This document shows positions 24,068 to 46,009 of a stretch of 64,000 bases of DNA, in pieces. The DNA lies in the NCBI GenBank assembly GCA_002316315.1, contig DCDG01000022.1:66731-130730 (forward strand), in the 5' to 3' direction. Each line of letters begins with the position of its first letter. Positions within the stretch are counted from its first letter, which is position 1. Source of the DNA: Candidatus Aminicenantes bacterium UBA1061 (GTDB lineage: Bacteria; Acidobacteriota; Aminicenantia; Aminicenantales; Saccharicenantaceae). The translations under genes and the position numbers were made by a program. The notes under the pieces are model-generated. The model was not told the DNA's origin and made no database searches. It worked only from the letters and a program-made list of their open reading frames with translations.

Positions 24068-24096
24068 TTGACTATTTCTTTTGAAGAGTTAAAATA
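24068..24096 (+). promoter_or_regulatory. Promoter for the riboswitch-btuB transcript (TTGACT-N16-TAAAAT).
   Basis: TTGACT at 24068-24073, TAAAAT at 24090-24095, placing the TSS just before the riboswitch. Confidence 0.4.
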
Positions 24097-24099
24097 ATG

Positions 24100-24260
24100 G
24101 CTTCAATATTGCGGGTTTAAAAGACAGGGAAGTCCGTTTTAGGCGGACACAGCCCCCGCTACTGTAATCGGCGACAAATCCCCGAGCAGGCCACTGCCCA
24201 TCAGGGCGGGAAGGCCGGGGAGGAGAATGACCCGAGAGTCAGGATACCTGTTTTAAACCC
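24100..24260 (+). promoter_or_regulatory. Cobalamin (B12) riboswitch in the 5' leader of the TonB-dependent receptor gene.
   Basis: Conserved core elements read directly: GGGAAGTCCG, CAGCCCCCGCTACTGTAA, GCCACTG, and the B12 box GAGTCAGGATACCTG (consensus rAGYCMGgAgaCCkGCc). It is followed by ~80 nt of expression platform and the RBS GGAAAGGAG before ATG 24341. Confidence 0.75.
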
Positions 24261-24340
24261 GGCGGACTTGTCTATCTTCGGGTGGAAGATAGAAAGTTGC
24301 CCGTCGTCAGATTTTCTCAAGCGGGGGGAAAGGAGTTTAA

Positions 24341-26275
24341 ATGAAAAAAGGCCTTTCTGCCCTTTTATTTTCAGGTCTGCTCTTAACCGCTATCTCCAGC
24401 CTGTCAGCAGATGATGAGAAGCAGCAGGAAAAAATCCATCATGAAATTTTGGTCACTGCCACTCGCCTGGAAACTCTATCCAGCGAGGTGGCTTCGGCTG
24501 CAACAGTGGTCAGAGTAGAGTCATTAACCCCGGTCAGCCTGACCCAGGCTCAGAATCTTTTTGCCCGGGTGCCTGGAATCTTTTTTCTTCAAACCGGACT
24601 GTCGGGAGGAACTGGTTCAGTTTTTATCCGGGGAGCCAATTCAGAGCACACTTTATTTATGTTGGACGGTTTTGAGCTGAATGACCCAATCTCTCCGGCC
24701 CGCTCTTTTAATTTCAATCTATTTAACCTCGGTCTTATCGATCGAATAGAAGTCCTGCGCGGGCCCCAGAGCAGTTTGTATGGGTCAGATGCCCTGGCCG
24801 GTGTAGTCAATCTTATTTCAACCGAGCCGAAAAAAAATCAACTGGAGCTTTCTGGCCTTTATGGCTCTTATAAAACCTTTAAGGGCGATCTCCGGCTAGC
24901 CCAGGTGAAAAAAAATCTTTTTTACCTTCTGGAATTTAATTCAGATGACAGCGGCGGGATATCTCAGGCCAGCAGTGCTTATAGCGGAAATAATGAATCA
25001 GACAGCTATACCCAGCAGAGCCTGGCTTTCAAGTTTAAATACCGGCCAGGAGAAAATTTTAATCTTTCCTGGCAGGCCAGGGCCCTGACCGCCCGGGCCG
25101 AACTTGACGCCTTTGGCGGTCCGGGCGGGGATGATCCCAACTCTGTCCAGAAGTCAACTTTCTTCTTCAATCGCCTGGAGCTTGACGGCTTTTTCTTCAA
25201 TCATCGCTGGGAACAGAAGTTAGTCCTTGGTTTCCAGGCAGGCCGGCGTCGGAATGACAATCCGGCGGATGAATTCCACCCTGAAATCGAGGAGGCTCGC
25301 TATAAAAGCCAGTTTTTTAAGCTGGACTGGCAGAATAATCTTTATCTCACGCTCAACCACCTGCTGATTTTTGGCTTCGAAGAAAAGCTCGAGCAGGGCA
25401 GCTCGAATTATTCTTATTTAAGTTCCTGGGGGGATTATCAGAGTGACTTTCCCAGGCAGAGTGCCTCGCTGGCCAGCTTCTATCTTCAAGATCAGTGGCG
25501 GCCCTGGTCTCAGCTGTCATTGACCTCAGGTGTTCGCTTCGACCACCACCAGAAGTTCGGTCCGGCTCTTACTTTCAGGCTGGCGGCTAATTATGACTGG
25601 TCAGAGCAGCAGACGCGGTTCAAATTCACTCTAGGTTCCGGCTTCAAAGCACCTTCTCTCTATGAGCTTTATGCTCCACCTGATAATCTTGGGCCGATTG
25701 GCAATATGTCCTTAGAGCCTGAAAAAAATCTGGGCTGGGACGCCGGCCTGGAAAAAATTTTCTTTGACCACCTGACCCTCTCCCTGACTTATTTTGAAAC
25801 CCGATTCCGAAATCTCATTCAGTTTTATTATGGCACTGGCTATCAGAATGTCGGGCAGGCTCGGACCAAAGGCCTTGAACTATCAATTAAAACCGCGCCG
25901 CTTAAAAACCTGGAGCTCACTGCCAGCTGGACTCACCTTCAGGCCAGAGACCTTGACCATCAAACCGATCTCCTCCGCCGGCCTAAAGATACATTTTATG
26001 GCAATCTGAATTTTTCGCGGAAAGCAGTTAGAATTAGCTCCGAAGTCTATTATTTGGGCCAGAGGTATGATCTTGATTTTTCTTCTTATCCCAACCGTGA
26101 AGTCTGCCTTCGGTCTGCCTTTCTGGTCAATTTTTTTGTGAGTTATGATCTTAAATCCACGACAAGCTTTTTCATTCGAGGAGATAATCTCCTTGGCACC
26201 AGATATGAGATGGTCTATGGCTATGGCTCCCCCGGGACTACAATTTCGACCGGATTTAGATTAAAATTATCTTAG
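24341..26275 (+). CDS. btuB: TonB-dependent outer-membrane receptor, BtuB-like (vitamin B12/corrinoid uptake).
   Basis: Signal peptide. TonB-box-like ILVTATR near the N-terminus, plug domain motifs (IEVLRGPQSSLYGSDALAGVVNLIS), and a long β-barrel with a C-terminal GFRLKLS. The B12 riboswitch sits directly upstream. Confidence 0.8.
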   Translation: MKKGLSALLFSGLLLTAISSLSADDEKQQEKIHHEILVTATRLETLSSEVASAATVVRVESLTPVSLTQAQNLFARVPGIFFLQTGLSGGTGSVFIRGANSEHTLFMLDGFELNDPISPARSFNFNLFNLGLIDRIEVLRGPQSSLYGSDALAGVVNLISTEPKKNQLELSGLYGSYKTFKGDLRLAQVKKNLFYLLEFNSDDSGGISQASSAYSGNNESDSYTQQSLAFKFKYRPGENFNLSWQARALTARAELDAFGGPGGDDPNSVQKSTFFFNRLELDGFFFNHRWEQKLVLGFQAGRRRNDNPADEFHPEIEEARYKSQFFKLDWQNNLYLTLNHLLIFGFEEKLEQGSSNYSYLSSWGDYQSDFPRQSASLASFYLQDQWRPWSQLSLTSGVRFDHHQKFGPALTFRLAANYDWSEQQTRFKFTLGSGFKAPSLYELYAPPDNLGPIGNMSLEPEKNLGWDAGLEKIFFDHLTLSLTYFETRFRNLIQFYYGTGYQNVGQARTKGLELSIKTAPLKNLELTASWTHLQARDLDHQTDLLRRPKDTFYGNLNFSRKAVRISSEVYYLGQRYDLDFSSYPNREVCLRSAFLVNFFVSYDLKSTTSFFIRGDNLLGTRYEMVYGYGSPGTTISTGFRLKLS

Positions 26276-26354: not shown

Positions 26355-29042
26355 ATGGAAGAAATCGAAACCCTCGACAAGATATTCAAGCCCCAGCGGA
26401 TTGCTCTGGTTGGAGTCAGCCCAAATCCAAAGAGCGTCAGCGGGAAAATTCTGTCGAACTTAATTACCGGTGGCTATCGCGGGGTTGTCTATCCGGTTAA
26501 TCCAGCCGTCGAAGCAGTGATGGGAATTCCCTGTTTCCCAGAAGTGAAAGGCCTGCCCAAGACTCCAGATTTAGCCGTGATTGCCGCTCCGGCCACTCAG
26601 GTCCCACTGTTAGTTAAAGAATGTGGAGAGGCCGGCATTCTGGGCATCATTATTATTTCTGCCGGTTTTCGGGAGACCGGTCAAGAGGGCCGAGCTCTGG
26701 AAGAAGAAATTCTTGCCCACAAAAAAAACTACCCGGGTATGCGCATTATCGGACCAAATTGCCTTGGGATAATTTCTCCTAATTTCCAACTGAATGCCAG
26801 TTTTGCCGCCGCCATGCCGCTCAAAGGGCATATTGCCTTTATTTCTCAATCAGGGGCTCTTTGCACTTCCATCCTTGACTGGTCGCTGCGGGAAAAAATC
26901 GGCTTTTCTCATTTTGTTTCGATCGGCAATGCTATTGATATTGATTTTGGCGATTTGATTGATTACTTTGGCGAAGACGAAAATACCAGATCTATCCTTC
27001 TCTATATTGAATCAATTGCCAATCCGAAAGCTTTTATGTCCGCTTCCAGGGCTTATGCCAGAACAAAACCGCTGGTGGCCTATAAGGCAGGCCGTTTCCC
27101 CCAATCAGCCCGGGCTGCTTCTTCTCATACAGGTGCCTTGGCTTCAGAAGACGCCATATATGATGCAGCCTTTAAAAGAGCAGGGATAGCCAGGGTGTTT
27201 GAAATAGGTGAGATGTTTGATGTGGCCGAACTTATTGGCCGGCAAAAAATCCCCAAGGGTCCCTGGCTGGCTATTGTCACCAATGCCGGCGGACCGGGCG
27301 TGATGGCTTCAGACACCTTAATTGAAGCTGGCGGTGAACTGGCCGAACTAACTACTCAGACTGTCAAGCATCTCAATGAGATTTTGCCACCCGCCTGGTC
27401 GCATGGTAATCCGGTAGATGTCCTGGGTGATGCCAGATCGAAGACGGTAGCTAAAGCGGTTAAAGCTGTTCTTGATGACCAGCAGACTGACGCTGTCCTT
27501 CTCATCATCACTCCCCAAGCCATGACTAACCCAACAGGCATTGCCAAAGAATTGATACCGGTGGCCTCCGAGACTCCAAAACCGGTGCTGGCCGCTTTTC
27601 TGGGTGGTCCGTCCATGGATCAGGCAGTTAGTTTGCTCAATGAGGCCGGCCTCCCAACTTATGGGACGCCAGAGCAGGCTGTCAGAGCTTTTATGATCCT
27701 GGTCAATTATGCCCGAAATCTGGATAACTTGTATGAAACCCCGCGGGAAATCTCAGTTGAATTCCCGGTCGACAGAGAAAAAATTCGCCAGGAAATTCTT
27801 CCCTTATTAACTCAAGGGTCAGAAATTCTGGATGAGCTAACCTCCAAAAAAATTCTTAAGGCCTACGGATTGGAGACAACCTTGCCCCAGCTGGCCCGGA
27901 CCAAAGAAGAGGCGGTCAAAACAAGCCAGGAAATTGGTTTCCCGGTGGTTTTAAAAATTCACTCTCCTGACATTACCCATAAAAGCGATGTGGGCGGGGT
28001 AGCTCTTGACCTCGAAGATAGCCACATGGTTGAAACCGCTTTTGAACGCCTCCTGGCCACCGTCAAAGAAAGAGCGCCAGAGGCGAGGATAGAGGGTGTT
28101 GCTGTTCAGAAGATGATCAAAAACCAGCCAGCCGTGGAAATGATTCTGGGTAGCAAAAAAGACGAAACTTTCGGGGCAGTCATCATGGTTGGTTCAGGCG
28201 GAATAGCGGCTGAGGTTCTGGGTGATCGCTCACTGTGTTTTCCGCCTTTAAATGAAAGGCTGGCCAGGCGGGCCCTGGAAGAACTAAAAACCTGGCCTTT
28301 GCTTAAAGGCTACCGTGGCCAACCTCCAGTTAATCTGGAAAAATTAATTGAAACCATTATCAGATTTTCTTATTTAGTAGCTGATTATCCAGAAATAAAG
28401 GAGATTGATATCAACCCGTTGCTGGCGAGCCCGGTGGAAGTTATTGCTCTTGATGCCCGGATAATAGTGGATAAGACAGTTCCACCGGAGAAAGCAAAAC
28501 GTTATCAGCATCTGGTTCTAAGACCTTATCCGGAAGAATTTATCCGCAAAGTCAAAATGAGAGACGGCACAGAAATCACGCTGCGACCAATCAGGCCTGA
28601 AGATGAACCAGCCTGGATGGAACTTCTGGGAAGTTGCTCGCAGGAAACAATTTATTCTCGTTTCCGCTATTTCTTTTTCTGGCAGTCGCACGAAGTGGCC
28701 TCAAGATATTGCTATATAGATTATGACCGGGAAATGGCCATTGTGGCTGAGCTGCAGGAAGGAAATAAGCGCCGCCTGCTGGGGATAGGACGCCTGACCG
28801 CTGACCCCAGCCGGTCAGTGGCTGAATATGCTGTGCTTGTTCAGGATGACTGGCAGAACAAAGGACTGGGAGGATTGCTAACCGACTACTGCACCGAGAT
28901 CGCCCGGGCCTGGGGTGTAAAAAAAATCATCGCCTACACCACGACTGACAACCCGCGGATGATAGCTGTCTTTAAAAGGCGCAATTTTGACATCCGCCTT
29001 GACCCGGTCTCAAGTCTGGTCGAAATTCAAAAGAATCTTTAG
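26355..29042 (+). CDS. pat: Protein lysine acetyltransferase Pat-type: NDP-forming acyl-CoA synthetase-like domains (CoA-binding, ligase-CoA, ATP-grasp) fused to a C-terminal GNAT acetyltransferase.
   Basis: 895 aa. The N-terminal CoA-binding Rossmann and succinyl-CoA-synthetase-like flavodoxin domain is followed by an ATP-grasp region. The C-terminal GNAT motifs (AVLVQDDWQNKGLGGLL) match the Pat/YfiQ architecture. Confidence 0.8.
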   Translation: MEEIETLDKIFKPQRIALVGVSPNPKSVSGKILSNLITGGYRGVVYPVNPAVEAVMGIPCFPEVKGLPKTPDLAVIAAPATQVPLLVKECGEAGILGIIIISAGFRETGQEGRALEEEILAHKKNYPGMRIIGPNCLGIISPNFQLNASFAAAMPLKGHIAFISQSGALCTSILDWSLREKIGFSHFVSIGNAIDIDFGDLIDYFGEDENTRSILLYIESIANPKAFMSASRAYARTKPLVAYKAGRFPQSARAASSHTGALASEDAIYDAAFKRAGIARVFEIGEMFDVAELIGRQKIPKGPWLAIVTNAGGPGVMASDTLIEAGGELAELTTQTVKHLNEILPPAWSHGNPVDVLGDARSKTVAKAVKAVLDDQQTDAVLLIITPQAMTNPTGIAKELIPVASETPKPVLAAFLGGPSMDQAVSLLNEAGLPTYGTPEQAVRAFMILVNYARNLDNLYETPREISVEFPVDREKIRQEILPLLTQGSEILDELTSKKILKAYGLETTLPQLARTKEEAVKTSQEIGFPVVLKIHSPDITHKSDVGGVALDLEDSHMVETAFERLLATVKERAPEARIEGVAVQKMIKNQPAVEMILGSKKDETFGAVIMVGSGGIAAEVLGDRSLCFPPLNERLARRALEELKTWPLLKGYRGQPPVNLEKLIETIIRFSYLVADYPEIKEIDINPLLASPVEVIALDARIIVDKTVPPEKAKRYQHLVLRPYPEEFIRKVKMRDGTEITLRPIRPEDEPAWMELLGSCSQETIYSRFRYFFFWQSHEVASRYCYIDYDREMAIVAELQEGNKRRLLGIGRLTADPSRSVAEYAVLVQDDWQNKGLGGLLTDYCTEIARAWGVKKIIAYTTTDNPRMIAVFKRRNFDIRLDPVSSLVEIQKNL

Positions 29043-29172: not shown

Positions 29173-30438
29173 ATGAACAGTAAAACAAGCAAGGGAAACC
29201 AGCGCCGGCTTTTATCCTTCCTTCTTTTAACTTTTTGCTTCATTTCTTTTCAGGCTTTTGATCTGCCGGCAGAAGAAAAGGAAAATATTTCTCTGACCTT
29301 TAGTGGCTATATCAAAACCGATATTATTTATGATACCAGACAGACAGTTAACCTGAGAGAAGGGCATTTCTTGCTTTTTCCTCAGGACAGGCTCCTTGAT
29401 CCGGCCGGGCGTGATCTTAACGCTAAAGATACTTTTCATATTCTGCCGATTCAAACCAGACTGGCTCTAAAGATCAACGGTCCACAAGCCCTGGGAGCTA
29501 AAACTTCAGGTTATATCGAAGCGGAATTTTTCGGCATGTCCGATGCCGATATCAATGGCTTCAGGCTGAGGCATGCTTATCTTAAATTAAACTGGAAGAA
29601 GACAGAACTGCTGGTGGGCCAATTCTGGCACCCGATGTTCATCAGCGACAGCTATCCTGAGGTTGTTTCTTTTAATACTGGCGCCCCTTTTGAGCCATTT
29701 TCGCGAGCACCGCAGATCAGTGTTACCTGGAGGCCAGAGCCGGCCTTGTCTTTTTCTTTAACCGCCCTTTCGCAGAGAGATTTCGCCTCGACTGGACCGG
29801 CTGGAGTAAGTACCTCCTATTTCAGGAATGCCGCCTGTCCTGAACTTGATTTTAAAGCAGCCTATAGCCAGAAGAATTTCCTGGCCGGGGCTGGAATCAA
29901 TGTGCTTAAAATTGTGCCGCGACTGGCTACTGAGACCGGTTACCAGGCGAATGAATCTCTGACCTCGCTGGCTGGCTATGCTTTTGGCCAGCTCAAAACG
30001 AAGCCCGTGACCATAAAGGCCGAAGGTGTCTATGGAGGCAATCTTCATCATCTGACCATGCTGGGTGGTTATGCTGTCTCCAAAATAGTTGATCCTATAA
30101 CCGCTCAACGCGATTATTCCCCAATTAATACTGCTTCCGGCTGGATTGATATCCAGACTAACGGAGAAAAATGGCAGCTTGGGCTATTCTCAGGCTATAG
30201 CCAGAACTCAGGAGCCAGAGGCGATATCGTCGGTCCTGTTTACAGCCGCGGCGAGACTATTGACCACCTTGTCCGAATTACTCCACGTTTTGTTTTTAAT
30301 GCGGGGAAGGTTCGATTAGCTCAAGAAATAGAATTGACTTCTGCCGCCTACGGTTCGCTTGACAGCCGTGGGCGGGTCAACGAACAAAGAACCGTCACCA
30401 ACCTCCGTTTTCTTTCGGCCGTCTATTATTTCTTCTGA
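29173..30438 (+). CDS. Putative outer-membrane β-barrel protein (porin-like), hypothetical.
   Basis: Signal peptide LLSFLLLTFCFISFQA. Amphipathic β-strand patterning throughout. C-terminal aromatic terminus AVYYFF is typical of OMP β-signals. Confidence 0.55.
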   Translation: MNSKTSKGNQRRLLSFLLLTFCFISFQAFDLPAEEKENISLTFSGYIKTDIIYDTRQTVNLREGHFLLFPQDRLLDPAGRDLNAKDTFHILPIQTRLALKINGPQALGAKTSGYIEAEFFGMSDADINGFRLRHAYLKLNWKKTELLVGQFWHPMFISDSYPEVVSFNTGAPFEPFSRAPQISVTWRPEPALSFSLTALSQRDFASTGPAGVSTSYFRNAACPELDFKAAYSQKNFLAGAGINVLKIVPRLATETGYQANESLTSLAGYAFGQLKTKPVTIKAEGVYGGNLHHLTMLGGYAVSKIVDPITAQRDYSPINTASGWIDIQTNGEKWQLGLFSGYSQNSGARGDIVGPVYSRGETIDHLVRITPRFVFNAGKVRLAQEIELTSAAYGSLDSRGRVNEQRTVTNLRFLSAVYYFF

Positions 30439-30471
30439 AGTATTTTTGCCGGCAAAAAAACAAAGAGCTGG

Positions 30472-31719
30472 CTACAGGCCGTATTTGTCGATGATTTCCT
30501 GTTTCGTTTTGTGGAGAATATCAAATTTCTTGCCGACTTTGATGAAAGCCTCCAGAGCTTTGTCCAGGTGATGAAGTTCATGAGCGGCAGAGATCTGAGT
30601 TCTGATTCTGGCCTGACCCTGAGGAACAACCGGGAAGAAAAAGCCGATGGCATAAATTCCCTCATCATAAAGAGCAATAGAAAAATCCTGGGCCAGTTTG
30701 GCATTATAGAGCATGATGGGGACAATCGGCGTGTCACCTTCCTTCAGAATAAAGCCAGCTTCAGTCAGGCCCTTCCTCCAGTAATCAGTATTTTTCTCCA
30801 GTTTGTCCCGCCGCTCGGTAGTGGCAGAGAGAATCTCCAGGACTCTTAACACACCTGCAATAATCATAGGAGCAACTGTATTGGAGAAAAGATAAGGCCG
30901 GGCTTTCTGACGGCACATCTCGACCAGCTCTTTCCGGCCAGACACGCAGCCACCTGTCGCTCCGCCGAGTGCTTTGCCAAATGTGGTCGTGATGACATCA
31001 ACTTTGCCCATCACCCCAAACTTCTCATGTGTCCCACGCCCCGTTTTCCCGATAAAACCAGTGGCATGCGAGTCATCAACCAGGAGCATAGCATTGTATT
31101 TCTCGCAGAGCTCGACCATCCTGTCCAGCTTGGCCGCATCACCATCCATGGAGAACACACCGTCCGTGACCACCAGTCTCAACCTCTTGTCCTGGTACAT
31201 CTGGAGCTTCTGCCCGAGGTGATCCATATCAGAGTGCTTGTAAGTGTCATTCATGGCACTGCACAGCCTGATGCCATCAATCAGTGAGGCGTGGACCAAT
31301 CTATCTGAGATAATTACATCCTCTTTGGTCAGGATAGCTTCAAACACGCCGGCATTAGCATCCATGCAGGAAGGAAAAAGAATCGTGTCCTCGGTTCTGA
31401 GAAATTCAGTTACCTTTTCTTCGAGCTGCCGATGAATATCCTGCGTGCCACAGATAAAGCGCACCGAAGACAGGCCAAAGCCCCGTCTGTCGAGCCCTTC
31501 ATGGGCAGCTTTAATGACCTCTGGATGACTCGACAGCCCCAGATAATTATTGGCGCACATATTGATGACTTTTTTCAAAGGCGCCCCGGCTGGAAACTCC
31601 ACTTCAATCTCGGCCGCCTGGGTCGAATGGATAGATCTCTCTTCCTTTAATATACCAGCTGCCTGCAGGGCCTCGAGCTGATCCTGGTATAGCTTTCTAA
31701 CCTCGTTAGGATAAGCCAT
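30472..31719 (-). CDS. α-Oxoamine synthase family PLP enzyme (serine palmitoyltransferase / 2-amino-3-ketobutyrate CoA ligase / BioF-like).
   Basis: 415 aa. Class II aminotransferase fold with PLP-lysine motif TTFGKALGG, the DDSHATGFIG pyridoxal anchoring block, and the LVVTDGVFSMDGD motif. Last gene of the acpS-ligase-ACP operon. Confidence 0.85.
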   Translation of the reverse strand: MAYPNEVRKLYQDQLEALQAAGILKEERSIHSTQAAEIEVEFPAGAPLKKVINMCANNYLGLSSHPEVIKAAHEGLDRRGFGLSSVRFICGTQDIHRQLEEKVTEFLRTEDTILFPSCMDANAGVFEAILTKEDVIISDRLVHASLIDGIRLCSAMNDTYKHSDMDHLGQKLQMYQDKRLRLVVTDGVFSMDGDAAKLDRMVELCEKYNAMLLVDDSHATGFIGKTGRGTHEKFGVMGKVDVITTTFGKALGGATGGCVSGRKELVEMCRQKARPYLFSNTVAPMIIAGVLRVLEILSATTERRDKLEKNTDYWRKGLTEAGFILKEGDTPIVPIMLYNAKLAQDFSIALYDEGIYAIGFFFPVVPQGQARIRTQISAAHELHHLDKALEAFIKVGKKFDILHKTKQEIIDKYGL

Positions 31720-31786
31720 GATTTTTTCCTCCTATTATTAAAAAGTCTGCCGGGCAAAGGCAAGCAACTCACCGGGCTGGCCAATC

Positions 31787-32035
31787 TTAACCTTTTACAA
31801 ATTCTTTGACCAACTCGGCGATTTTATTAACCGAGTCAAATGCCTCAGGCGTAGCTTTTTCATCAGGAATTTGAATCTGGTATTTATTCTCCAGAAACCT
31901 CTTGAGGGAAACCATCGAGAAGGAATCAACTATACCGCCAGAAATAAGCGGGGTTTCATAGTCAATTGGGTCGCTATCTGGTTCTAAATATTCATCGGTT
32001 ACATAATTTTTAATGACTTCCTTGAGTTCGTCCAT
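31787..32035 (-). CDS. Acyl carrier protein (dedicated ACP, not the FAS AcpP).
   Basis: 82 aa, acidic. The phosphopantetheine-attachment motif GGIVDSFSMVSL has a conserved Ser in the D-S-F context. It lies between the ligase and the α-oxoamine synthase. Confidence 0.75.
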   Translation of the reverse strand: MDELKEVIKNYVTDEYLEPDSDPIDYETPLISGGIVDSFSMVSLKRFLENKYQIQIPDEKATPEAFDSVNKIAELVKEFVKG

Positions 32036-32092
32036 GTTGTTGCTCCTTTTTTATTTTTGTCTTTTTATTAGATATTTTCAACCTTATTTTAT

Positions 32093-33796
32093 TTAATCAT
32101 TTTCCAGCGTCGAGGTATCACCAGCTTCTTCACCCCATTCTTTGGCATGGAGAATCCGGCGCATGATCTTACCGCTTCTGGTTTTGGGCAGCGTGTTAAC
32201 AAACTCGATTTCCTGGGGCATAGCCAAAGGTGAAAGTTTCTTGCGGATATAGTTCATGATATCAAGTTCAATATCCTTAGAAGGGCTATGGCCTGGCTTT
32301 AAGGTCACAAAGGCTTTAACCACTTCCATATTGATTGGATCAGGCTTACTGACCACGGCCGACTCTGCCACGGCCTGATGCTCGAGAAGAGCCGATTCAA
32401 CTTCAAATGGGCTGACCAGGTGGCCGCCCGTATTGATGATATCGTCATCCCGGCCAACAAACCAGAAATAGCCGTCGCTGTCAAGACGGGCCCGGTCTCC
32501 GGTCAGATACCAGCCATTATGAAATTTATTTTTATAGGCTTCTTCATTTTTCCAGTAGCCTCTCATCATGGAAGGCCAGCCAGGTTTTATTCCGATTAAC
32601 CCTATTTTCCCCGGATGAGGATAGGGCTCATAAGTATTTGGATTCAAGATCGTGGCCGTTATGCCTGGAAAGGCACGTCCCATTGAACCAGGTTTAACCG
32701 TCATGCCCGGAAAATTAGTAATCAGGATGCAGCCCGTTTCGGTCTGCCAGTAAGTATCATGAAATGGTTTCCCAAAGACTCTAATGGACCAGTTAACCGC
32801 CTCAGGATTGAGAGGCTCACCCACACTGGCCAGATGACGAAGTAAAGATAGGTTAAATTTTTTAATGATTTCATCTCCGGCTTTCATCAGTGACCTGATG
32901 GCCGTCGGTGCCGAATACCAGACGGTGATTTTATTATTCTCAATAAAGCGATACCAGGCCTCAGCCGAAAAACCGCTGTCCAGGACACATTGCGTCACCC
33001 CCAGGCTGAAGGGAGCAATTATTCCATAGGAAGTTCCCGTTACCCAGCCGGGATCAGCCGTGCACCAGTAGATATCATCATCTCTGAGATCCAGCACCCA
33101 TTTAGCCGTCAGATACTGAGAAATCAAGGAATAATGAACATGCTGAACTCCCTTGGGCATCCCCGTTGTCCCCGAAGTATAGTGAAGGACGGATGGCGAT
33201 TCAGCATAGGTTGGATAAATATCATAATCCTCGACTCCGCCCAGAGCCTCCATAGAAAAAGCTGTTTCCCTTTCCTGAAGCGGGCTTCGGCCATCATAGT
33301 CGACAATAAAAATATGCTGGAGAGAGGGCAACTTATCTTTGATTTTTCTGACCTTGGCTACATGCTTCTTTTGAGTAAAGATAGCCGCGGTCTGAGCATT
33401 TTCCAGCCTGACAAAAAGTGAATCTTCGCCAAAAGCTGAGAAAAGAGGCTGAGCAATAGCCCCTGTCTTCAGGATACCCACAAAGCCAATATAAAGCTCT
33501 GGTATTCTATCCATAAAGAGGCAGACCCGGTCGCCAGCCTTCAGGCCCGAATCGGTTAGGAAACGGGCAAAAGTATTGGAATAGCGCCTGAGATCGTTGT
33601 AGGTATAGATCTTTTTTTCTGCACTGAAGCCTTCCCAGATAAGGGCTATCTTGTCAGCTTTACCCTGCTGGCAAACACGGTCGGAGCAGTACCAGCCGAT
33701 ATTAATCGGCTGACCTGGCTGATAGCCGAGTTCCTGCTCGCTTAGCGACCAGGAAAAATTTTTAGTCCGCTCTTCATAGTTTCCAAAGTTGGACAT
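32093..33796 (-). CDS. AMP-forming acyl-CoA/acyl-ACP synthetase of the acetyl-CoA-synthetase-like subfamily.
   Basis: 567 aa. Adenylation motifs YTSGTTGMPKGV, YWQTETG, WYLTGD, GRDDDIINTGGHLVSPFEVESAL, and the C-terminal PKTRSGKIMRRIL all match the Acs family. Confidence 0.85.
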   Translation of the reverse strand: MSNFGNYEERTKNFSWSLSEQELGYQPGQPINIGWYCSDRVCQQGKADKIALIWEGFSAEKKIYTYNDLRRYSNTFARFLTDSGLKAGDRVCLFMDRIPELYIGFVGILKTGAIAQPLFSAFGEDSLFVRLENAQTAAIFTQKKHVAKVRKIKDKLPSLQHIFIVDYDGRSPLQERETAFSMEALGGVEDYDIYPTYAESPSVLHYTSGTTGMPKGVQHVHYSLISQYLTAKWVLDLRDDDIYWCTADPGWVTGTSYGIIAPFSLGVTQCVLDSGFSAEAWYRFIENNKITVWYSAPTAIRSLMKAGDEIIKKFNLSLLRHLASVGEPLNPEAVNWSIRVFGKPFHDTYWQTETGCILITNFPGMTVKPGSMGRAFPGITATILNPNTYEPYPHPGKIGLIGIKPGWPSMMRGYWKNEEAYKNKFHNGWYLTGDRARLDSDGYFWFVGRDDDIINTGGHLVSPFEVESALLEHQAVAESAVVSKPDPINMEVVKAFVTLKPGHSPSKDIELDIMNYIRKKLSPLAMPQEIEFVNTLPKTRSGKIMRRILHAKEWGEEAGDTSTLEND

Positions 33797-33810
33797 CTTC
33801 CCTCCAGTTT

Positions 33811-34185
33811 TTATTTTTCCAAAATGACCGTAGCTATGGCCAGCGTCCTGAGATGTGATAAGCTGACATAAAAGTGGCCGATACCTTCGGCCTGACAGAA
33901 TTCCTTAGCCTGACCATAAACCTCAATAACTGGTTGACCTGATTCCAGATTATGGATTTCTATTTCAGAAAATTTAACCCCGCGACTCCAGCCGGTGCCG
34001 AGAGCTTTCATAAAAGCCTCTTTGGCGGCAAAGCGGGCAGCATAATGCTGGAAAGCAAACTTTTTACTCTCGCAGTAGCCAATCTCAACGGGGGTATAAA
34101 GCTTTTCTTTAAGCCCCGGAGTTCTGGTTAGCTTATCCTCGATTCTCGCCACCTCAATGATGTCTACGCCTACCCCAAAAATCAA
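33811..34185 (-). CDS. acpS: Holo-ACP synthase (4'-phosphopantetheinyl transferase, AcpS type).
   Basis: 124 aa. Begins IFGVGVDIIEVARIE (the G.D..E motif). FAAKEA and the WS.G block are typical of AcpS. Confidence 0.8.
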   Translation of the reverse strand: MIFGVGVDIIEVARIEDKLTRTPGLKEKLYTPVEIGYCESKKFAFQHYAARFAAKEAFMKALGTGWSRGVKFSEIEIHNLESGQPVIEVYGQAKEFCQAEGIGHFYVSLSHLRTLAIATVILEK

Positions 34186-34308
34186 TGGCCCTCCTGATTT
34201 TCAATCAACCTCTTTGAGCTTCTCCTGCCTCTTTTTCTCTCCTCTTCAGTCCTTCCAGTCAAAAAAATATTATAGAAAAAACCGCGGCAAAGTCAAAAGG
34301 TGCGGCTA

Positions 34309-34875
34309 TCATGCCTGTCCCAGATGATCAAAAAGTATTTTGAACCCAATGAAAACCAAAACCAGGCCTCCAAACAGCTCTGCTCGGCGCCCCAGAACCT
34401 GGCCCAGGGCCGGGCCTAACCGGCTGCCAATGACAGTCAGGGTGAAAGCTGTAAGACCGATAACCAGGCTGGCCAGCCAGACATTGAGGCCAATGACCGG
34501 CAGGCTAAGACCACAAGCCAGCGCATCGAGGCTGGTAGCCACGGACAGGACCAGAAGTGGCCATCCCCGAGTTAAATCTTTACCGTTATATTTTTTGTCT
34601 CGGGACCAAAAAGATTCTAGAGCCATTCTTCCACCGATAAGGACCAGCAAGCCAAAAGCTATCCAGTGATCATAGCGGGAAATTAATTTTAGCAGATGCT
34701 CGCCAATTAACCAGCCGACAACAGGCATCAGAAACTGGAAAAAACCAAAATAAGAGGCCAGGCGAAAAGCCTGCCTGGTCTTCAAACCTGAAAGGGAGCA
34801 GGATAATCCAACGGTCACGGCGAAAGCATCAACAGCCAGAGCCAGGGCCAGACCGAGTAGAATAATGACTTTCAT
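34309..34875 (-). CDS. mntP: Putative manganese efflux pump, MntP/YebN family.
   Basis: 188 aa with 6 TM helices. N-terminal LALALAVDAFAVTVGLS and a repeated DA motif in the second half (TSLDALACGLSL), the signature of the MntP (DUF204) family. Confidence 0.65.
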   Translation of the reverse strand: MKVIILLGLALALAVDAFAVTVGLSCSLSGLKTRQAFRLASYFGFFQFLMPVVGWLIGEHLLKLISRYDHWIAFGLLVLIGGRMALESFWSRDKKYNGKDLTRGWPLLVLSVATSLDALACGLSLPVIGLNVWLASLVIGLTAFTLTVIGSRLGPALGQVLGRRAELFGGLVLVFIGFKILFDHLGQA

Positions 34876-34973
34876 AATTCTAAGATTCTATCATAGCTTG
34901 AGCTAATTTTCTCTCCAGGATTACAGCCAGCAGGCTTACCATCTCAGCTTTTTCAGAGTATAATTTTTTTTAT

Positions 34974-37718
34974 ATGGAAGAAAAAATTATTCTCCGGGGA
35001 GTCCGGGTTCATAATCTAAAGAACATTGATCTGGACCTGCCTGTCGGTCAACTTATTGTTATCACCGGGGTCAGCGGCTCTGGTAAGTCATCCTTAGCTT
35101 TTGATACTCTTTATGCTGAAGGACAGAGGCGTTATCTCGAATCTCTCTCTTCCTATGCTCGCCAGTTCCTCGAACGCCTCGACAGACCGGAGGCTGACCT
35201 GATTGAAGGTATTCCACCGGCCATTGCCATCCAGCAAAAGGCTTCGGCCAAAAATCCCAGGTCAACCGTGGCCACCGTCACCGAGATTTATGATTATTTA
35301 AGAGTCCTTTATGCTCATCTGGGGACAATACACTGCCTGCAGTGCGGCCAGCCAGTTAAAAAAGATACGATTGACTCCATGGTGGAAACCCTTTTTAAAT
35401 TTCCTGCCGGAACAAAGATGATTATTACCTTTGACTGGTCAGAGGAGAAAAAGCTTTCCGAGTTAAGAAGAGAAGGGTTTTTGAAAATTTATGGCCGCGG
35501 CCAGATTAGATCTCTTGATGATTTCGAAAACGGAAAACCAAACAAGAGTGGAGTGGAAGTGGTGGTTGATGAGTTAGTCCTTGATAAAGAAGACAGGGAG
35601 CGGCTGGTTGATTCTCTGGAAACGGGATTAAAGAAGGGTGAAGAGCATGTTCGAGTTCGGGTGGAAGGCGGGCCCGTTTATCTTTTCACCGAGCAGCTGG
35701 AATGCCGGCAATGTGGAATTGTCTATGAAGAGCCTTATCCTAATCTTTTCTCTTTTAATAGCCCGCAAGGAGCCTGCCCGGTCTGTCATGGCTTTGGCGA
35801 TCTGGCTGTTCTTGATGAGAACAAAATTGTTCCGGATAAAAACAAGTCCCTGGAAGAGGGTGCTATTGAACCCTGGACCAAGCCGGCCTCACGTGGACTT
35901 CAGAAGGAACTACTGCGGGAGGCCAGAAAGAGAGGCATCTCGACCTCGCTGCCCTTTTCCCGTCTTAAGCCTGAACAGCAAAAATTTATTCTGGAAGGCG
36001 GTGATGGTTATTATGGCGTCAAAGGTTTTTTTGACTGGCTTGAATCTAAAAAATATAAAGTTCAGGTTCGAGTCCTTCTAAGCCGTTATCGCCAGTTTGT
36101 GCCCTGCCCGGCCTGCTATCGAACAAGGCTTAATGAAAAAGCCCTGGCCATAAAAATCCAGGGAAAATCCATCGGAGATTTCTGCACCCTGACTGTCAGA
36201 GAGGCTTTTAACTTCTTTGAGAACTGGATACTGAGCCCGTATGAGAGGCAGGTTGGCGAGCGACTGATTCAGGAAATAAAAAACCGCCTGAACTTTTTGC
36301 TGGAAGTTGGACTTGATTATCTGTCCCTCGACCGCCTGACCTTTACCCTGAGTGGAGGTGAAGCCCAGAGAATAAACCTGGCCGCCGCCTTAAGCGCTTC
36401 CCTTGTCGGAACACTGTTTATTCTCGATGAGCCATCAGTTGGCCTGCATCCACGTGACAATAATCGCCTGGTCAAAATACTAAGAGAGCTGCAGGGGATA
36501 GGAAATACAGTGATCGTTGTCGAACATGATCCGGAGATTATTGCCCGGGCTGATTATATAATTGATCTCGGGCCAGGAGCCGGCGAATACGGCGGGGAAG
36601 TTATTTTTGCCGGGCCGATGAAAGATTTTCGGGAGGACCGGAAATCTCTGACAGCTAAATATATCAGGGGAGATTTATCCATCCCGCCGCCTCCTGCCAG
36701 GCGGCCGGTGACTGATTGCCTTAAAATCTACGGGGCCAGAAAACATAATCTGAAACATCTTAACTTCAGCCTGCCACTTGGAATTTTTGTCTGCATCACC
36801 GGCGTCTCGGGCTCAGGCAAAAGCACTCTCGCCGAGGATATTATATATAAAGGCCTCACCGGGGAAAATGGTGATGGCTATGACCGGCTGGAAGGTCAGG
36901 AGTTAATCAGCCAGGTCATTAAAGTTGACCAGTCGCCTTTAAGCACTTCTCCCCGTTCTATCCCAGCTACTTACACCAAAGCCATGGATAACATCAGGGA
37001 ATTGTTTGCTTCGACGCGGGAAGCTAAAGCTCTTGGTTATAAGGCTGGCCATTTTTCCTTTAACACGCCGGGTGGCCAGTGCCCTGACTGCCGGGGAGCC
37101 GGCTTTCAGCAGGTGGAAATGCAATTCCTGAGCGATGTCACCCTGACCTGTGAAACCTGTCAGGGCCGGCGATATAAACCAGAAATTCTCGAAATAAAAT
37201 ACCGGGGAAAAACTATTTATGATGTTTTAAAGATGAGTGTCAGCGAAGCCTTAGAATTTTTTGCTGGTGAGGAAGATATTGAGCGACGACTTCTGCCGCT
37301 GGCTGAGGTCGGACTGGGCTATCTGAGGCTGGGTCAGCCGACTACCACACTCTCCGGAGGAGAACTGCAGCGTATCAAGCTGGCCTACCATCTGGTTCAT
37401 GCCAAGAAACAGGAAATCCTTTATCTTTTTGATGAACCAACTATTGGGCTTCATGCTGATGATATCAAAGTCCTTCTCCAGTGTTTTCAAAAACTGGTCG
37501 AGGAAGGAAACAGCCTGGTGGTGATTGAACATAATCTCGATGTGGTCAAATCAGCTGATTATATAATTGATCTCGGACCAGAGGGCGGAGAAGGGGGCGG
37601 TTATATCGTTGCTCAGGGTTCTCCTGAGGAAGTAGTCGCCACACCCCGTTCAATAACTGGTGTCTTTTTGCAAAAAGTCCTGGTCAAGCCTCAATCAACT
37701 GGTATCGGCCGTCGATGA
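34974..37718 (+). CDS. uvrA: Excinuclease ABC subunit A.
   Basis: Two ABC ATPase modules ([28 protein letters not shown]), zinc-finger cysteine pairs (CRQCG, CPVCHG, CPDCRG, CETCQG), and LSGGE signatures. 914 aa. Confidence 0.95.
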
Positions 37719-44230: not shown

Positions 44231-46009
44231 TTAATCAACATACAATCTGTCAATTAACGGTTTGTACTTTTCTTCGATGACTTTTCTTCTGACTTTCAGG
44301 GTGGGTGTCATTTCGCCTGTTTCAATCTCAAAATCTCTATCCAGAATGACAATCTTTTTAATTTTCTCATAAGAGGCCAGGTGCGAAGTCAATCGGTTAA
44401 TTTCCTGCATAAAAAAGTTGTAAATCTCTGGTTTTTCAACTAGCTCTTTCTCAGTCGAAAAAGTGAGGTTATGTTCGGCCGCATATTTTTTTGTCTTTTC
44501 CAGGTCAGGCACAATGAGAGCAGAGACAAATTTTCGCCGATCGCCAGTGACCACCACATTGGCAATATAAGGACTGGCCATCAGGGCATTTTCAATCGGT
44601 TGAGGGGCAACATTTTTCCCACCAGAGGTCACAATGATGTCTTTCTTACGGTCAGTGATCACTACAAAACCGTCTTGATCAAGGTAACCAACATCACCTG
44701 TTTTAAACCAGCCATCCTCAAAAGCCTCTTCAGTCAAAGTTTCCTTATTGAAATACCCTTTCATGACATTCGGGCCATGAACCAGAATTTCTCCATCCGG
44801 AGCAAATTTCACTTCCTCTCCAGGGAGAACTTTCCCGACCGTTCCAAATTTAAAATCACTGACCGTGTTGAGAGAAATAACAGGCGAAGTCTCAGTTAAG
44901 CCATAACCTTCAATAATCAGAATTCCCATGGCATAGAAAAATTCGGCAATTTCCCGGGCCAGAGGAGCTCCGCCCGAGACAAAAAACCTGACCCGGCCTC
45001 CAGTTCTTTCCACTATTTTGGAAAAAACCAACCGATAAGCCAGCTGGTAACGGACTTTAAGCCAGGCTGGGAGTTGGCCATGACTGGTTTTAACCTGAAC
45101 ATACTTTCGCCCAACCTTAAGAGCCCAGAAGAAGATTCTTCGCTGCAAATTAGGCGAGCCCAGGACACTGTCCACTACCGCCGCATAAAATTTGTCAAAA
45201 AACCTGGGAACACTGACCATAATGGTTGGCCTGGCTTCAACCAGGTTGTCAGCTACCGTCTCCACACTTTCAGCATAGGCTATGGTGGCGCCAACATACA
45301 GCCAGGCAAAAGTACACATTCTCTCCAGCACATGAGACAGAGGAAGAAAACTTAAGGCCGTATCACCTGAGTTAAAGTCTACCAGTGAGCGCAGCGTCTG
45401 AATATTATTGACCAGATTATAATGGCTGAGCATAGCACCTTTTGGAGTGCCGGTCGTGCCGGACGTATAAATGATAGTCGCCAGGTCGTCGGGCAGAATG
45501 GATAGGGCTGCCCGGTCAAAATCGGCAGGGTGGTCCAGGTTATATTGTTCCCCGATTTTTTCCACTTCGGCCAGGCCGACCACCCCATCCGGGACATTGC
45601 CTTCCATCAGTATATATTTTTCAACGAGTGGCAGTTCGTGGCGGATCGAAGTAATTTTCTGCCAGAGCTTCAAGTTAGAACAAACCAGAAACCTGGCCTG
45701 CGAATCATTGATAATATATTTAATCTGGTCGGGAGCAAGATTCGTATAAACTGGAACAGTGACTCCACCCCCAGAAACCGTGGCCACATCAACCATGACC
45801 CATTCTGGCCCGTTTTCGGATAAAATAACCAGTTTGTCTCCTTTATTTAAGCCAGCAACCTTCAGACCAGAAGAAATATTTCTAACCCGCCGGGCGAACT
45901 CAGCGGTGGAAACAGGAAGATATTGACCATTCTTTTTAGCCAGCATCAGCGCTTCCTTCTGGTGGTTCTTGTCTAAGTTAAGGAAAATCTTCGACAGAGT
46001 GTCAATCAC
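44231..46009 (-). CDS. Long-chain fatty-acid--CoA ligase (AMP-dependent synthetase).
   Basis: Adenylation motifs YTSGTTGTPKGAML, EGYGLTETS, WFKTGDVGYLDQDGF, and TPTLKVRRKVI. 592 aa. Confidence 0.85.
   Translation of the reverse strand: MIDTLSKIFLNLDKNHQKEALMLAKKNGQYLPVSTAEFARRVRNISSGLKVAGLNKGDKLVILSENGPEWVMVDVATVSGGGVTVPVYTNLAPDQIKYIINDSQARFLVCSNLKLWQKITSIRHELPLVEKYILMEGNVPDGVVGLAEVEKIGEQYNLDHPADFDRAALSILPDDLATIIYTSGTTGTPKGAMLSHYNLVNNIQTLRSLVDFNSGDTALSFLPLSHVLERMCTFAWLYVGATIAYAESVETVADNLVEARPTIMVSVPRFFDKFYAAVVDSVLGSPNLQRRIFFWALKVGRKYVQVKTSHGQLPAWLKVRYQLAYRLVFSKIVERTGGRVRFFVSGGAPLAREIAEFFYAMGILIIEGYGLTETSPVISLNTVSDFKFGTVGKVLPGEEVKFAPDGEILVHGPNVMKGYFNKETLTEEAFEDGWFKTGDVGYLDQDGFVVITDRKKDIIVTSGGKNVAPQPIENALMASPYIANVVVTGDRRKFVSALIVPDLEKTKKYAAEHNLTFSTEKELVEKPEIYNFFMQEINRLTSHLASYEKIKKIVILDRDFEIETGEMTPTLKVRRKVIEEKYKPLIDRLYVD

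Follow-up and report, generated by a model that had tools for sequence, protein, structure and literature searches.

Which acyl group and which amino acid are joined by an operon that encodes an α-oxoamine synthase (AOS) alongside a carrier protein, an adenylating ligase and a phosphopantetheinyl transferase? The question is raised by a locus of Candidatus Aminicenantes bacterium UBA1061 (assembly GCA_002316315.1), lying in the 64-kb stretch of contig DCDG01000022.1 (positions 66,731 to 130,730) that was analysed here and is called the window below. Coordinates are those of the window, and all four genes of the module lie on its minus strand. A check of open reading frames (ORFs) recovered them at precisely the positions given by an earlier sequence-only reading, which saw in them a candidate pathway to a sphingoid base or another amino-lipid. 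The genes are as follows:

33811-34185, minus strand: acpS, holo-ACP synthase (group I phosphopantetheinyl transferase), 124 amino acids, TTG start
32093-33796, minus strand: Acs-clade adenylating ligase, proposed acetate:[ACP] ligase (acetyl-ACP synthetase), 567 amino acids
31787-32035, minus strand: stand-alone carrier protein (type II ACP/PCP-like), 82 amino acids, with the phosphopantetheine site at Ser38 (GGIVDSFSMVSL)
30472-31719, minus strand: Kbl-clade AOS, proposed acetyl-ACP-using glycine C-acetyltransferase, 415 amino acids, with the pyridoxal phosphate (PLP) lysine at position 249

We propose that the operon encodes a version of the acetyl-CoA synthetase (Acs) and Kbl reactions that depends on an acyl carrier protein (ACP). 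Judged from comparative sequence evidence, this proposal seems to us about as probable as its rivals taken together. The identity of the two enzymes, the constancy of the carrier protein beside them and the recurrent presence of threonine dehydrogenase genes in related loci carry the argument.

The synthase and the ligase

In profile comparisons the AOS is a Kbl (glycine C-acetyltransferase, EC 2.3.1.29) and not a serine palmitoyltransferase (Spt). The motif TTFGKALGG bears its PLP lysine, K249, and Pfam assigns it to Aminotran_1_2 (4.5e-60). It scores above both curated Kbl equivalog cutoffs (NF005394, 571.8 against 460; TIGR01822, 570.3 against 493) and below all three Spt models (NF047600, 321 against 640; NF047599, 280 against 500; NF047603, 229 against 670), as well as below the models for BioF, ALAS and CqsA. 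Comparison with proteins of known structure gives the same ranking, with 440-462 bits to Kbl, 244 to Spt, about 190 to BioF and 186 to cysteate-C-fatty acyltransferase, and the protein is 54-55% identical to the Kbl enzymes of E. coli and Cupriavidus necator. Two further identities were rejected: BioF and a role in biotin synthesis (TIGR00858, 369 against 426; no bio genes in the window), and a CqsA/Lgs-type autoinducer synthase (NF005526, 196 against 428). The Lgs system of B. fragilis is CqsA-like and operates without an ACP (PMC13080023).

The active site agrees with this assignment. Residues N50, V79, H136, S185, D210, H213, T241, K244, S274 and R368 (E. coli numbering) are invariant in module AOS and canonical Kbl. 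The residue at position 79 (Val79 of ThAOS and Kbl) touches the C-alpha of the bound amino acid; KBL enzymes invariably have Val there, SPT and AONS have Ser, ALAS has Thr and Alb29 has Leu (PMC11906848). A Ser at this point would admit L-serine. The equivalent residue of the window AOS, V86, is invariant across all 73 AOS of the module type, which indicates that these enzymes bear a glycine-selecting signature.

The comparison set for these and later counts comprises the 80 loci that encode the nearest AOS relatives, mostly contigs of metagenome-assembled genomes (MAGs) whose taxonomic labels may be imperfect. Identity to the window AOS is 70% or more for all 73 module-type AOS and 49-56% for the co-resident Kbl and those of E. 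coli and Cupriavidus. In a tree the module-type AOS form a monophyletic clade of short branches apart from the canonical Kbl of the same genomes, and in 272 of 276 genome pairs the module AOS is the more conserved of the two (median 82% against 62%). The clade has around 20 fixed substitutions of its own, among them N135V beside the catalytic His136, F112M, G116A and V369T beside Arg368, together with a three-residue insertion (EFPAG) at 41-45 and a conserved Lys-rich C-terminal tail, ILHKTKQEIIxxYG, at approximately 401-415. A second AOS-family gene accompanies the module in 31 loci and is a canonical Kbl in about 28 of them; on TIGR01822, examples of these canonical enzymes reach 600-670 bits and the module AOS 570. 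Given the co-resident canonical enzyme, the fixed substitutions and the tail, the module AOS is best described as a specialised, highly conserved Kbl paralogue. The same features, taken with the ACP gene that is its obligatory neighbour, suggest that its thioester partner is the ACP rather than CoA.

At three loci (L020:1964-3223, L045:9288-10547 and L067:2666-3919) a second AOS of 417-419 residues, 59-61% identical, follows the module AOS in tandem. It has the C-terminal tail, the insertion and roughly half of the module-specific residues, keeps the Kbl-type N135 and F112, and is followed by genes for a 1254-residue Ser/Thr kinase, Hsp20 and Lon.

The ligase, with Pfam domains AMP-binding and AMP-binding_C, belongs to the Acs clade (EC 6.2.1.1). 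It exceeds the cutoff of one Acs model (NF003313, 762.8 against 729), falls below those of two others (TIGR02188, 499.6 against 724.95; NF001208, 496 against 657) and is 47% identical to the nearest Acs of known structure, 9g79. The acetate pocket of Salmonella Acs is kept, with V310 and T311 in GWVTG, V386 in SVGEP and W414 in YWQTETG, as is the catalytic, acetylatable A10 lysine (Lys609) in PKTRSGKIMRR. Pocket and lysine are retained in all 65 module ligases, the equivalent of Trp414 in 61 of the 65, and this conservation indicates that the substrate is a C2 or at most a C3 acid, not a fatty acid. At two loci (L034:5961-7647 and L068:5976-7678) the ligase is recovered by tblastn in several pieces, owing either to frameshifts in a pseudogene or to long-read assembly errors.

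Where the ligase departs from Acs, it does so in the region of the CoA-dependent step. In Salmonella Acs the conserved arginines R191, R526 and R584 serve CoA binding and the thioester-forming step, and changes at the R526 equivalent of the Methanothermobacter enzyme lower kcat 130-326-fold, the Ala variant not being saturable with CoA (PMC10455477). The Arg526 equivalent is Leu in 65 of 65 module ligases (GGHLVSPFEVE) and Arg in all three of the nearest solved Acs structures. The R191 equivalent is not confidently alignable: the aligned column holds Ala or Ser within a Lys/Arg-rich patch. In place of the Arg191/194 segment there is a conserved basic stretch, Q-[RK]-K-H-x-x-K-V-R-K, at ligase residues 142-151, whose character suggests that it would suit the docking of an acidic carrier. 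The module belongs to the Kbl and Acs sequence families but, in sequence at least, lacks one defining feature of Acs, Arg526.

These results bear directly on the lipid product first suggested, in which an Spt-like enzyme, supplied by an acyl-ACP synthetase and an ACP of its own, would make a long-chain sphingoid base, a capnine-type sulfonolipid or another amino-lipid. Alphaproteobacterial sphingolipid producers of the Caulobacter/Sphingomonas type have an Spt with a dedicated ACP and an acyl-ACP synthetase, and the ligase, ACP and AOS of the window, with AcpS, formally match that set, including the logic of a ligase that loads a private carrier feeding an α-oxoamine synthase. The module, however, is built from the short-chain Acs and Kbl subfamilies, has Val where Spt has its serine-selecting residue, has an acetate-sized ligase pocket where the suggestion required a long-chain synthetase, and lacks ceramide synthase and reductase partners. 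Genes for ceramide synthase, 3-keto reductase or other lipid functions were neither found among the annotated ORFs of the window nor seen to recur near the 80 loci, and the window holds no ceramide, biotin or fab genes. The recurrent neighbours are instead tdh and kbl; the AOS clusters firmly with Kbl, and its orthologues adjoin tdh in 30 of 80 loci. We therefore regard a lipid product as very improbable. The four gene identities on which that suggestion was built were nonetheless correct, as Pfam and NCBIfam matches confirm and, for the ACP, an AlphaFold model with its structural matches. So too the notion of a self-contained unit, in which a carrier of its own and a neighbouring adenylating ligase supply the AOS, is borne out by the conservation and by the sister cassette described below.

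The carrier protein and its recurrent partners

The 82-residue ORF falls short of the Pfam PP-binding threshold (PF00550, 16.5 against 20.8) and of all NCBIfam ACP models, the best being ACP_for_OlsHI (61 against 130). Despite these scores its model identifies it as a carrier protein: it is acidic (pI 4.29), contains a GGIVDSF motif, has Ser38 in GGIVDSFSMVSL, and has a confident AlphaFold (AF2) model (pLDDT 86.7) with helices at 2-15, 38-52 and 69-80, the second of which opens with Ser38. Foldseek comparison of this model with the PDB gives PltL, PigG, DltC and a glycyl-carrier protein as best matches, PltL and PigG with a TM score of 0.8 and a probability of 1.00. The core PLISGGIVDSFSMVSLKRFLENKY is almost invariant among relatives. 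Members abound in metagenomes, yet the family is compact: a search of 1.84 billion representatives gave 52 at E ≤ 1e-10. An identity as the ACP of ornithine-lipid OlsHI systems was rejected on the sub-cutoff score; the OlsHI paper holds nothing relevant on an ACP.

Some carrier relatives stand in other settings. One, 44% identical (L083:7001-9581), directly precedes a gene for a HypF-type hydrogenase-maturation carbamoyltransferase and has no ligase in its vicinity, and P0169, P0183 and P0129 are on contigs that are too short or in unrelated context (adjoining HypF).

The AcpS assignment is straightforward (TIGR00516, 91.4 against a cutoff of 59.8; NF000832, 114.4 against 107; PF01648, 5.9e-16). 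That it is dedicated to the module, as the sequence-only reading had it, is unproven: acpS adjoins the module in just 46 of 80 loci and, with a median identity of 48%, diverges like an ordinary vertically inherited gene. It is probably the general AcpS of the organism, co-transcribed with a carrier that needs priming. No second AcpS and no second Acs were found, within the window only.

The other three proteins are far more constant. Median identities to the window proteins across loci L012-L080, a set that leaves out the closest relatives, are 78% for the AOS, 74% for the ligase and 70% for the ACP, and the closest related locus is 95% identical to the window. Host labels include Aminicenantes, Bacteroidales/Rikenellaceae/Prolixibacteraceae, Ignavibacteria, Zixibacteria, Cloacimonadota, KSB1, Delongbacteria, Elusimicrobiota, Gemmatimonadota and Neomarinimicrobiota. 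An ACP gene lies directly upstream of the AOS gene in 77 of the 77 loci with enough sequence, and ligase and ACP genes precede it on the same strand in 65 of the 69 with enough upstream sequence (median gaps 53-56 nt), an arrangement far beyond chance. Among the exceptions, the ligase gene is not adjacent in L029 and is split off in L052 by an inserted block with a TIR-domain gene. The latter, an unannotated ORF block on a Cloacimonadales contig (L052:530-7967) between the ligase and the ACP-AOS pair, may be a defence island.

The ligase and ACP also occur with a different partner. On four independent contigs (L081:3-1253, L082:3-1083, L087:5016-8483 and L088:9-1527) the order is ligase (58-63% identical), ACP (46-53%) and then, replacing the AOS, an O-acyltransferase of the MBOAT family (PF03062, AlgI/DltB-like). 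These sister ligases are nearer to the module ligase than is any solved Acs and have the identical acetate pocket, Leu and basic patch. The L087 pair, 63% (ligase) and 48% (ACP) identical to the window proteins, lies inside a polysaccharide-biosynthesis cluster (GT2, GT1/4, PGA_cap). Remoter carrier relatives (30-38%) also adjoin ANL ligases, often with an MBOAT. The gene order mirrors DltA-DltC-DltB, a system in which the carrier is charged by the ligase and its phosphopantetheine arm yields the acyl group to the MBOAT (PMC12148441). A 2025 paper states that MBOAT/SGNH pathways other than Dlt have no carrier protein. The sister cassette has the look of an MBOAT system that is distinct from Dlt but likewise works through a carrier protein. 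Since the same pair precedes either an AOS or an MBOAT, ligase and ACP would appear to form a fixed unit for making acyl-ACP, combined with one consumer or another. Charging of the carrier by the ligase is suggested by the loss of Arg526 and the basic patch, by the structural neighbours of the ACP, which are charged by stand-alone adenylating enzymes, and, most tellingly, by this sister cassette.

What metabolite the module handles is best seen from its neighbours. A zinc-type L-threonine 3-dehydrogenase (NF003808, 541 against 380) is encoded in 16 of the 80 loci and a threonine dehydrogenase of the unrelated SDR/GalE type (415 bits to the TDH structure 7cgv) in 14, so that 30 have a tdh of one type or the other and none has both. 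Operon-like orders include Tdh-AcpS-ligase-ACP-AOS, Tdh-ligase-ACP-AOS-Kbl and Tdh-Kbl-ligase-ACP-AOS. The recruitment of two analogous Tdh types to the module independently is strong, if genomic, evidence that 2-amino-3-oxobutanoate, the product of Tdh and substrate of Kbl, is its metabolite. Housekeeping-type genes such as uvrA, gltX and that for ribonucleotide reductase (RNR) are also found beside the module; other neighbours (Ser/Thr kinase, Lon, Hsp20, peptidases, MFS, SDR) are too sporadic for interpretation.

The same neighbourhoods make it improbable, to our minds, that the module makes some other small molecule, either from propionate or another C2-C3 acid or through a decarboxylating AOS that yields an aminoketone such as aminoacetone, as a pyrazine precursor or signal. 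The pairing of an AOS with a carrier is typical of secondary metabolism; the substitutions N135V and V369T, beside the catalytic His136 and Arg368, could alter product handling; and 2-amino-3-oxobutanoate spontaneously decarboxylates to aminoacetone. It has been termed an unstable β-keto acid (PMC11906848). Such a role is, however, hard to square with the extreme conservation, the housekeeping neighbourhoods, the absence of recurrent tailoring genes, the acetate pocket with Trp414 intact and the two independent Tdh types, which point to 2-amino-3-oxobutanoate as a shared intermediate.

Proposed reactions and their direction

In the mechanism we propose, AcpS would attach phosphopantetheine to Ser38 of the 82-residue carrier. 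The Acs-clade ligase would adenylate acetate and pass the acetyl group to the carrier thiol, not to CoA, giving acetyl-ACP, and the Kbl-clade PLP enzyme would then convert acetyl-ACP and glycine to 2-amino-3-oxobutanoate and holo-ACP. Tdh, encoded beside the module in many genomes and elsewhere or not at all in this one, would interconvert 2-amino-3-oxobutanoate and L-threonine, and a Pat-like acetyltransferase probably switches the ligase off. The ACP as thiol acceptor and donor, acetate as the acyl group and the direction of flux are each inferred from comparative evidence.

Several observations weigh against this proposal. The ligase clears an equivalog cutoff for acetate--CoA ligase (NF003313) and retains the equivalent of Arg584, which binds the CoA 3'-phosphate in Acs. 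The Arg526 equivalent is Arg also in carrier-loading enzymes, namely DltA and the A domains of nonribosomal peptide synthetases, so that the Leu of the module ligase is unusual, not diagnostic. No fusion of ligase with ACP or of ACP with AOS was found among the 1.84 billion representatives. The window has no tdh and no second kbl (ORF 2218-3243, considered as a Tdh, was rejected by profile scoring), and for this reason the link to threonine rests on other genomes. Nor need the high identity between phyla reflect constraint alone, as it could stem in part from horizontal transfer. A binning artefact is unlikely, since the loci differ in their flanking genes, in their type of Tdh and in how far AcpS and Kbl have diverged. 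Finally, a canonical Kbl co-transcribed with an ATP-driven synthesis would make a futile cycle unless regulated.

Part of this evidence would fit a simpler explanation, that the enzymes are uncoupled neighbours: the ligase a plain acetyl-CoA synthetase, the AOS a CoA-dependent Kbl, and the ACP serving another process or acting as a regulatory or structural partner. Besides both enzymes clearing curated equivalog cutoffs of CoA-dependent enzymes, the A10 lysine of Acs, its Pat motif and the Arg584 equivalent are all kept, a Pat-like gene lies nearby, and acs and kbl share acetyl-CoA, so that co-regulation might suffice for clustering. Yet the ACP gene stands between the two enzymes in essentially all loci of some ten phyla (77/77; 65/69), the nearest non-module relatives of the ligase are again paired with the same ACP family, the ligase has lost the conserved Arg526, and a canonical Kbl resides in about 28 of the loci beside a module AOS that is specialised, with substitutions and a tail of its own. 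We consider the uncoupled arrangement unlikely, by a shade more so than the reversed, catabolic flux discussed next.

Under the proposed coupling of Acs-like and Kbl-like steps through the ACP, flux could run either way. In the catabolic direction Tdh would oxidise threonine, the AOS would thiolyse 2-amino-3-oxobutanoate onto holo-ACP to give glycine and acetyl-ACP, and the ligase, reversed, would convert acetyl-ACP, AMP and PPi to acetate and ATP. In about 30 loci tdh and canonical kbl, the classical pair for threonine breakdown, share a strand with the module and are interspersed with its genes; the hosts belong to lineages of anaerobic fermenters from sediments and digesters; peptidase and MFS-transporter genes are occasional neighbours; and the AMP-forming Acs of Syntrophus aciditrophicus reportedly runs in reverse for ATP synthesis. 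The futile cycle to be expected in operons that look threonine-catabolic also argues for this direction. Against it, thiolysis with CoA is already favourable and a canonical Kbl is present, so that a separate carrier would bring no obvious gain. We think catabolic flux through the module unlikely, roughly a one-in-several prospect, though as a rival it deserves to be taken seriously.

The assimilatory direction, in which ATP drives acetate and glycine to 2-amino-3-oxobutanoate and on to threonine, is modestly favoured over the reverse for four reasons. The ligase of the sister cassette with its MBOAT can work forwards only; we know of no carrier-protein-loading adenylating enzyme that runs physiologically in reverse; control of the Pat type belongs to acetate-activating Acs; and, arguing by analogy with thiolase, only the uphill condensation would profit if ATP is spent, to AMP and PPi, on keeping a separate pool of thioester fully charged. 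On the same analogy a fully acetylated private carrier pool can, in principle, push the Kbl equilibrium uphill with the CoA pool untouched. The module would then stand to the reversible Tdh-Kbl pair, as its 'biosynthetic' counterpart, much as Acs stands to Pta-Ack. A bolder extension, which we offer as tentative and on balance doubtful, is that acetyl-ACP from an Acs-derived acetate:ACP ligase is an unrecognised acetyl currency of many uncultured anaerobes, driving glycine and acetate to threonine and feeding MBOAT O-acetyltransferases in the sister cassette.

Genomic setting and relation to known systems

The four genes look like a single transcription unit, given their short intergenic gaps (14, 57 and 67 nt from acpS to the AOS gene), the GGAGG-type ribosome-binding site before each and one promoter-like match upstream of acpS. 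The TTG start of acpS lies 5 nt 3' of an AGGAGG site. Two candidate signals and one neighbouring gene may be listed here:

34269-34296, minus strand: candidate promoter of the four-gene unit, TTGACT-16 nt-TATAAT, matching the sigma-70 consensus at 11 of 12 positions
31747-31763, minus strand: weak terminator-like hairpin with a T-run between the ACP and AOS genes, a pattern match with a 5-bp stem and 3 GC pairs
26355-29042, plus strand: protein of Pat/PatZ architecture, with NDP-forming acyl-CoA-synthetase-like domains and a C-terminal GNAT domain (Pfam CoA_binding_2, Succ_CoA_lig, Ligase_CoA_2, ATP-grasp_5, Acetyltransf_1)

The promoter-like sequence, the best sigma-70-like match within 30300-35100, falls between mntP and acpS, 84 nt before the start codon of acpS, and is likely the promoter of the module. 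The hairpin could possibly attenuate read-through into the AOS gene; terminator-like sites are no more numerous in the region than in shuffled sequence, and its significance is doubtful. No riboswitch or other Rfam element was found upstream of the module in the window and five loci. Recent horizontal acquisition of the operon in this genome was rejected, as GC content across it is unremarkable.

The Pat-architecture gene lies outside the operon. Thirteen of the 80 loci, among them MAGs of Bacteroidales, Ignavibacteriales and Terriglobia, have such a gene next to the module, and its product may, by analogy with the established biology of Acs and Pat and given the retained PKTRSGK motif, regulate the ligase by lysine acetylation. 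Next to it, at 29173-30438 on the plus strand, is a gene for a porin-like outer-membrane β-barrel with weak similarity to DcaP and a C-terminal YYFF. Aminicenantes loci, and some from Bacteroidales and Ignavibacteriales, have both genes next to the module, a hint of control of the ligase by acetylation and perhaps of substrate uptake.

Other features of the window stand apart from the module. A cobalamin riboswitch (RF00174, 99.9 bits) at 24075-24269 on the plus strand lies directly upstream of a gene for a BtuB-like TonB-dependent receptor (24341-26275). At 28-7965 and 8149-8592, both on the plus strand, five consecutive ORFs (142, 561, 341, 965 and 566 residues) without a Pfam match at 1e-8 are followed by an AbiEii toxin fragment, and this region may be mobile or defence-related. 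A second ligase of the ANL family (44231-46009, minus strand; AMP-binding and AMP-binding_C_3, 592 residues) is unrelated to the module and adjoins radC and ogt-like genes.

Among characterised systems the module most resembles Tdh-Kbl and Acs. With the former (E. coli Kbl, PDB 1FC4) it shares 54% identity in the AOS, all catalytic and substrate-binding residues and orthologues linked to tdh; it differs in that its AOS is a separate paralogue, always preceded by its own carrier and an Acs-like ligase, and in the proposed donor, acetyl-ACP in place of acetyl-CoA. With Acs/AcsA under Pat control (Salmonella 2P2F; the 572-residue 9G79) its ligase shares fold and motifs, the acetate pocket, the PKTRSGK lysine and a Pat-architecture gene nearby, but it is 47% identical, has Leu for Arg526 and a basic patch for Arg191/194, is always followed by an ACP gene and would use ACP as acceptor.

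Two carrier-dependent systems offer precedents of another kind. Like Dlt (DltA-DltC-DltB, teichoic-acid D-alanylation), the module encodes a stand-alone adenylating ligase and a small type II carrier next to a single consumer enzyme of their own, and DltC is among the structural matches of the ACP; its ligase, however, is Acs-derived with an acetate pocket, not D-alanine-activating, and its consumer is a cytoplasmic PLP enzyme that forms C-C bonds, not a membrane acyltransferase. CitC and MadH, of citrate lyase and malonate decarboxylase, are acetate:[ACP-SH] ligases and thus a precedent for the ATP-dependent acetylation of a carrier thiol with free acetate; they belong to an unrelated family and acetylate the 2'-(5''-phosphoribosyl)-3'-dephospho-CoA prosthetic group on a lyase subunit. 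A full-text literature search found no description of an ACP-dependent Kbl/Acs module, an absence that is no proof of its being undescribed.

Kbl and Acs are textbook CoA-dependent enzymes of central metabolism, and in each family one clade has apparently switched to a carrier protein of its own, with 70-80% identity maintained over some ten phyla of largely uncultured anaerobes. If this is true, the module would be a new node in threonine, glycine and acetate metabolism, and metabolic reconstructions from MAGs should read such 'acs' and 'kbl' annotations differently. A carrier protein would, in that event, insulate a thioester pool thermodynamically within primary metabolism. Some polysaccharide O-acylation systems, those of the sister cassette, may draw on acyl-ACP instead of acyl-CoA. 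On the bolder reading given above, the cassette would be the second carrier-protein-dependent MBOAT system after Dlt, and the module itself would provide an ATP-powered, carrier-gated route from glycine and acetate to threonine, the assimilatory mirror image of Tdh-Kbl.

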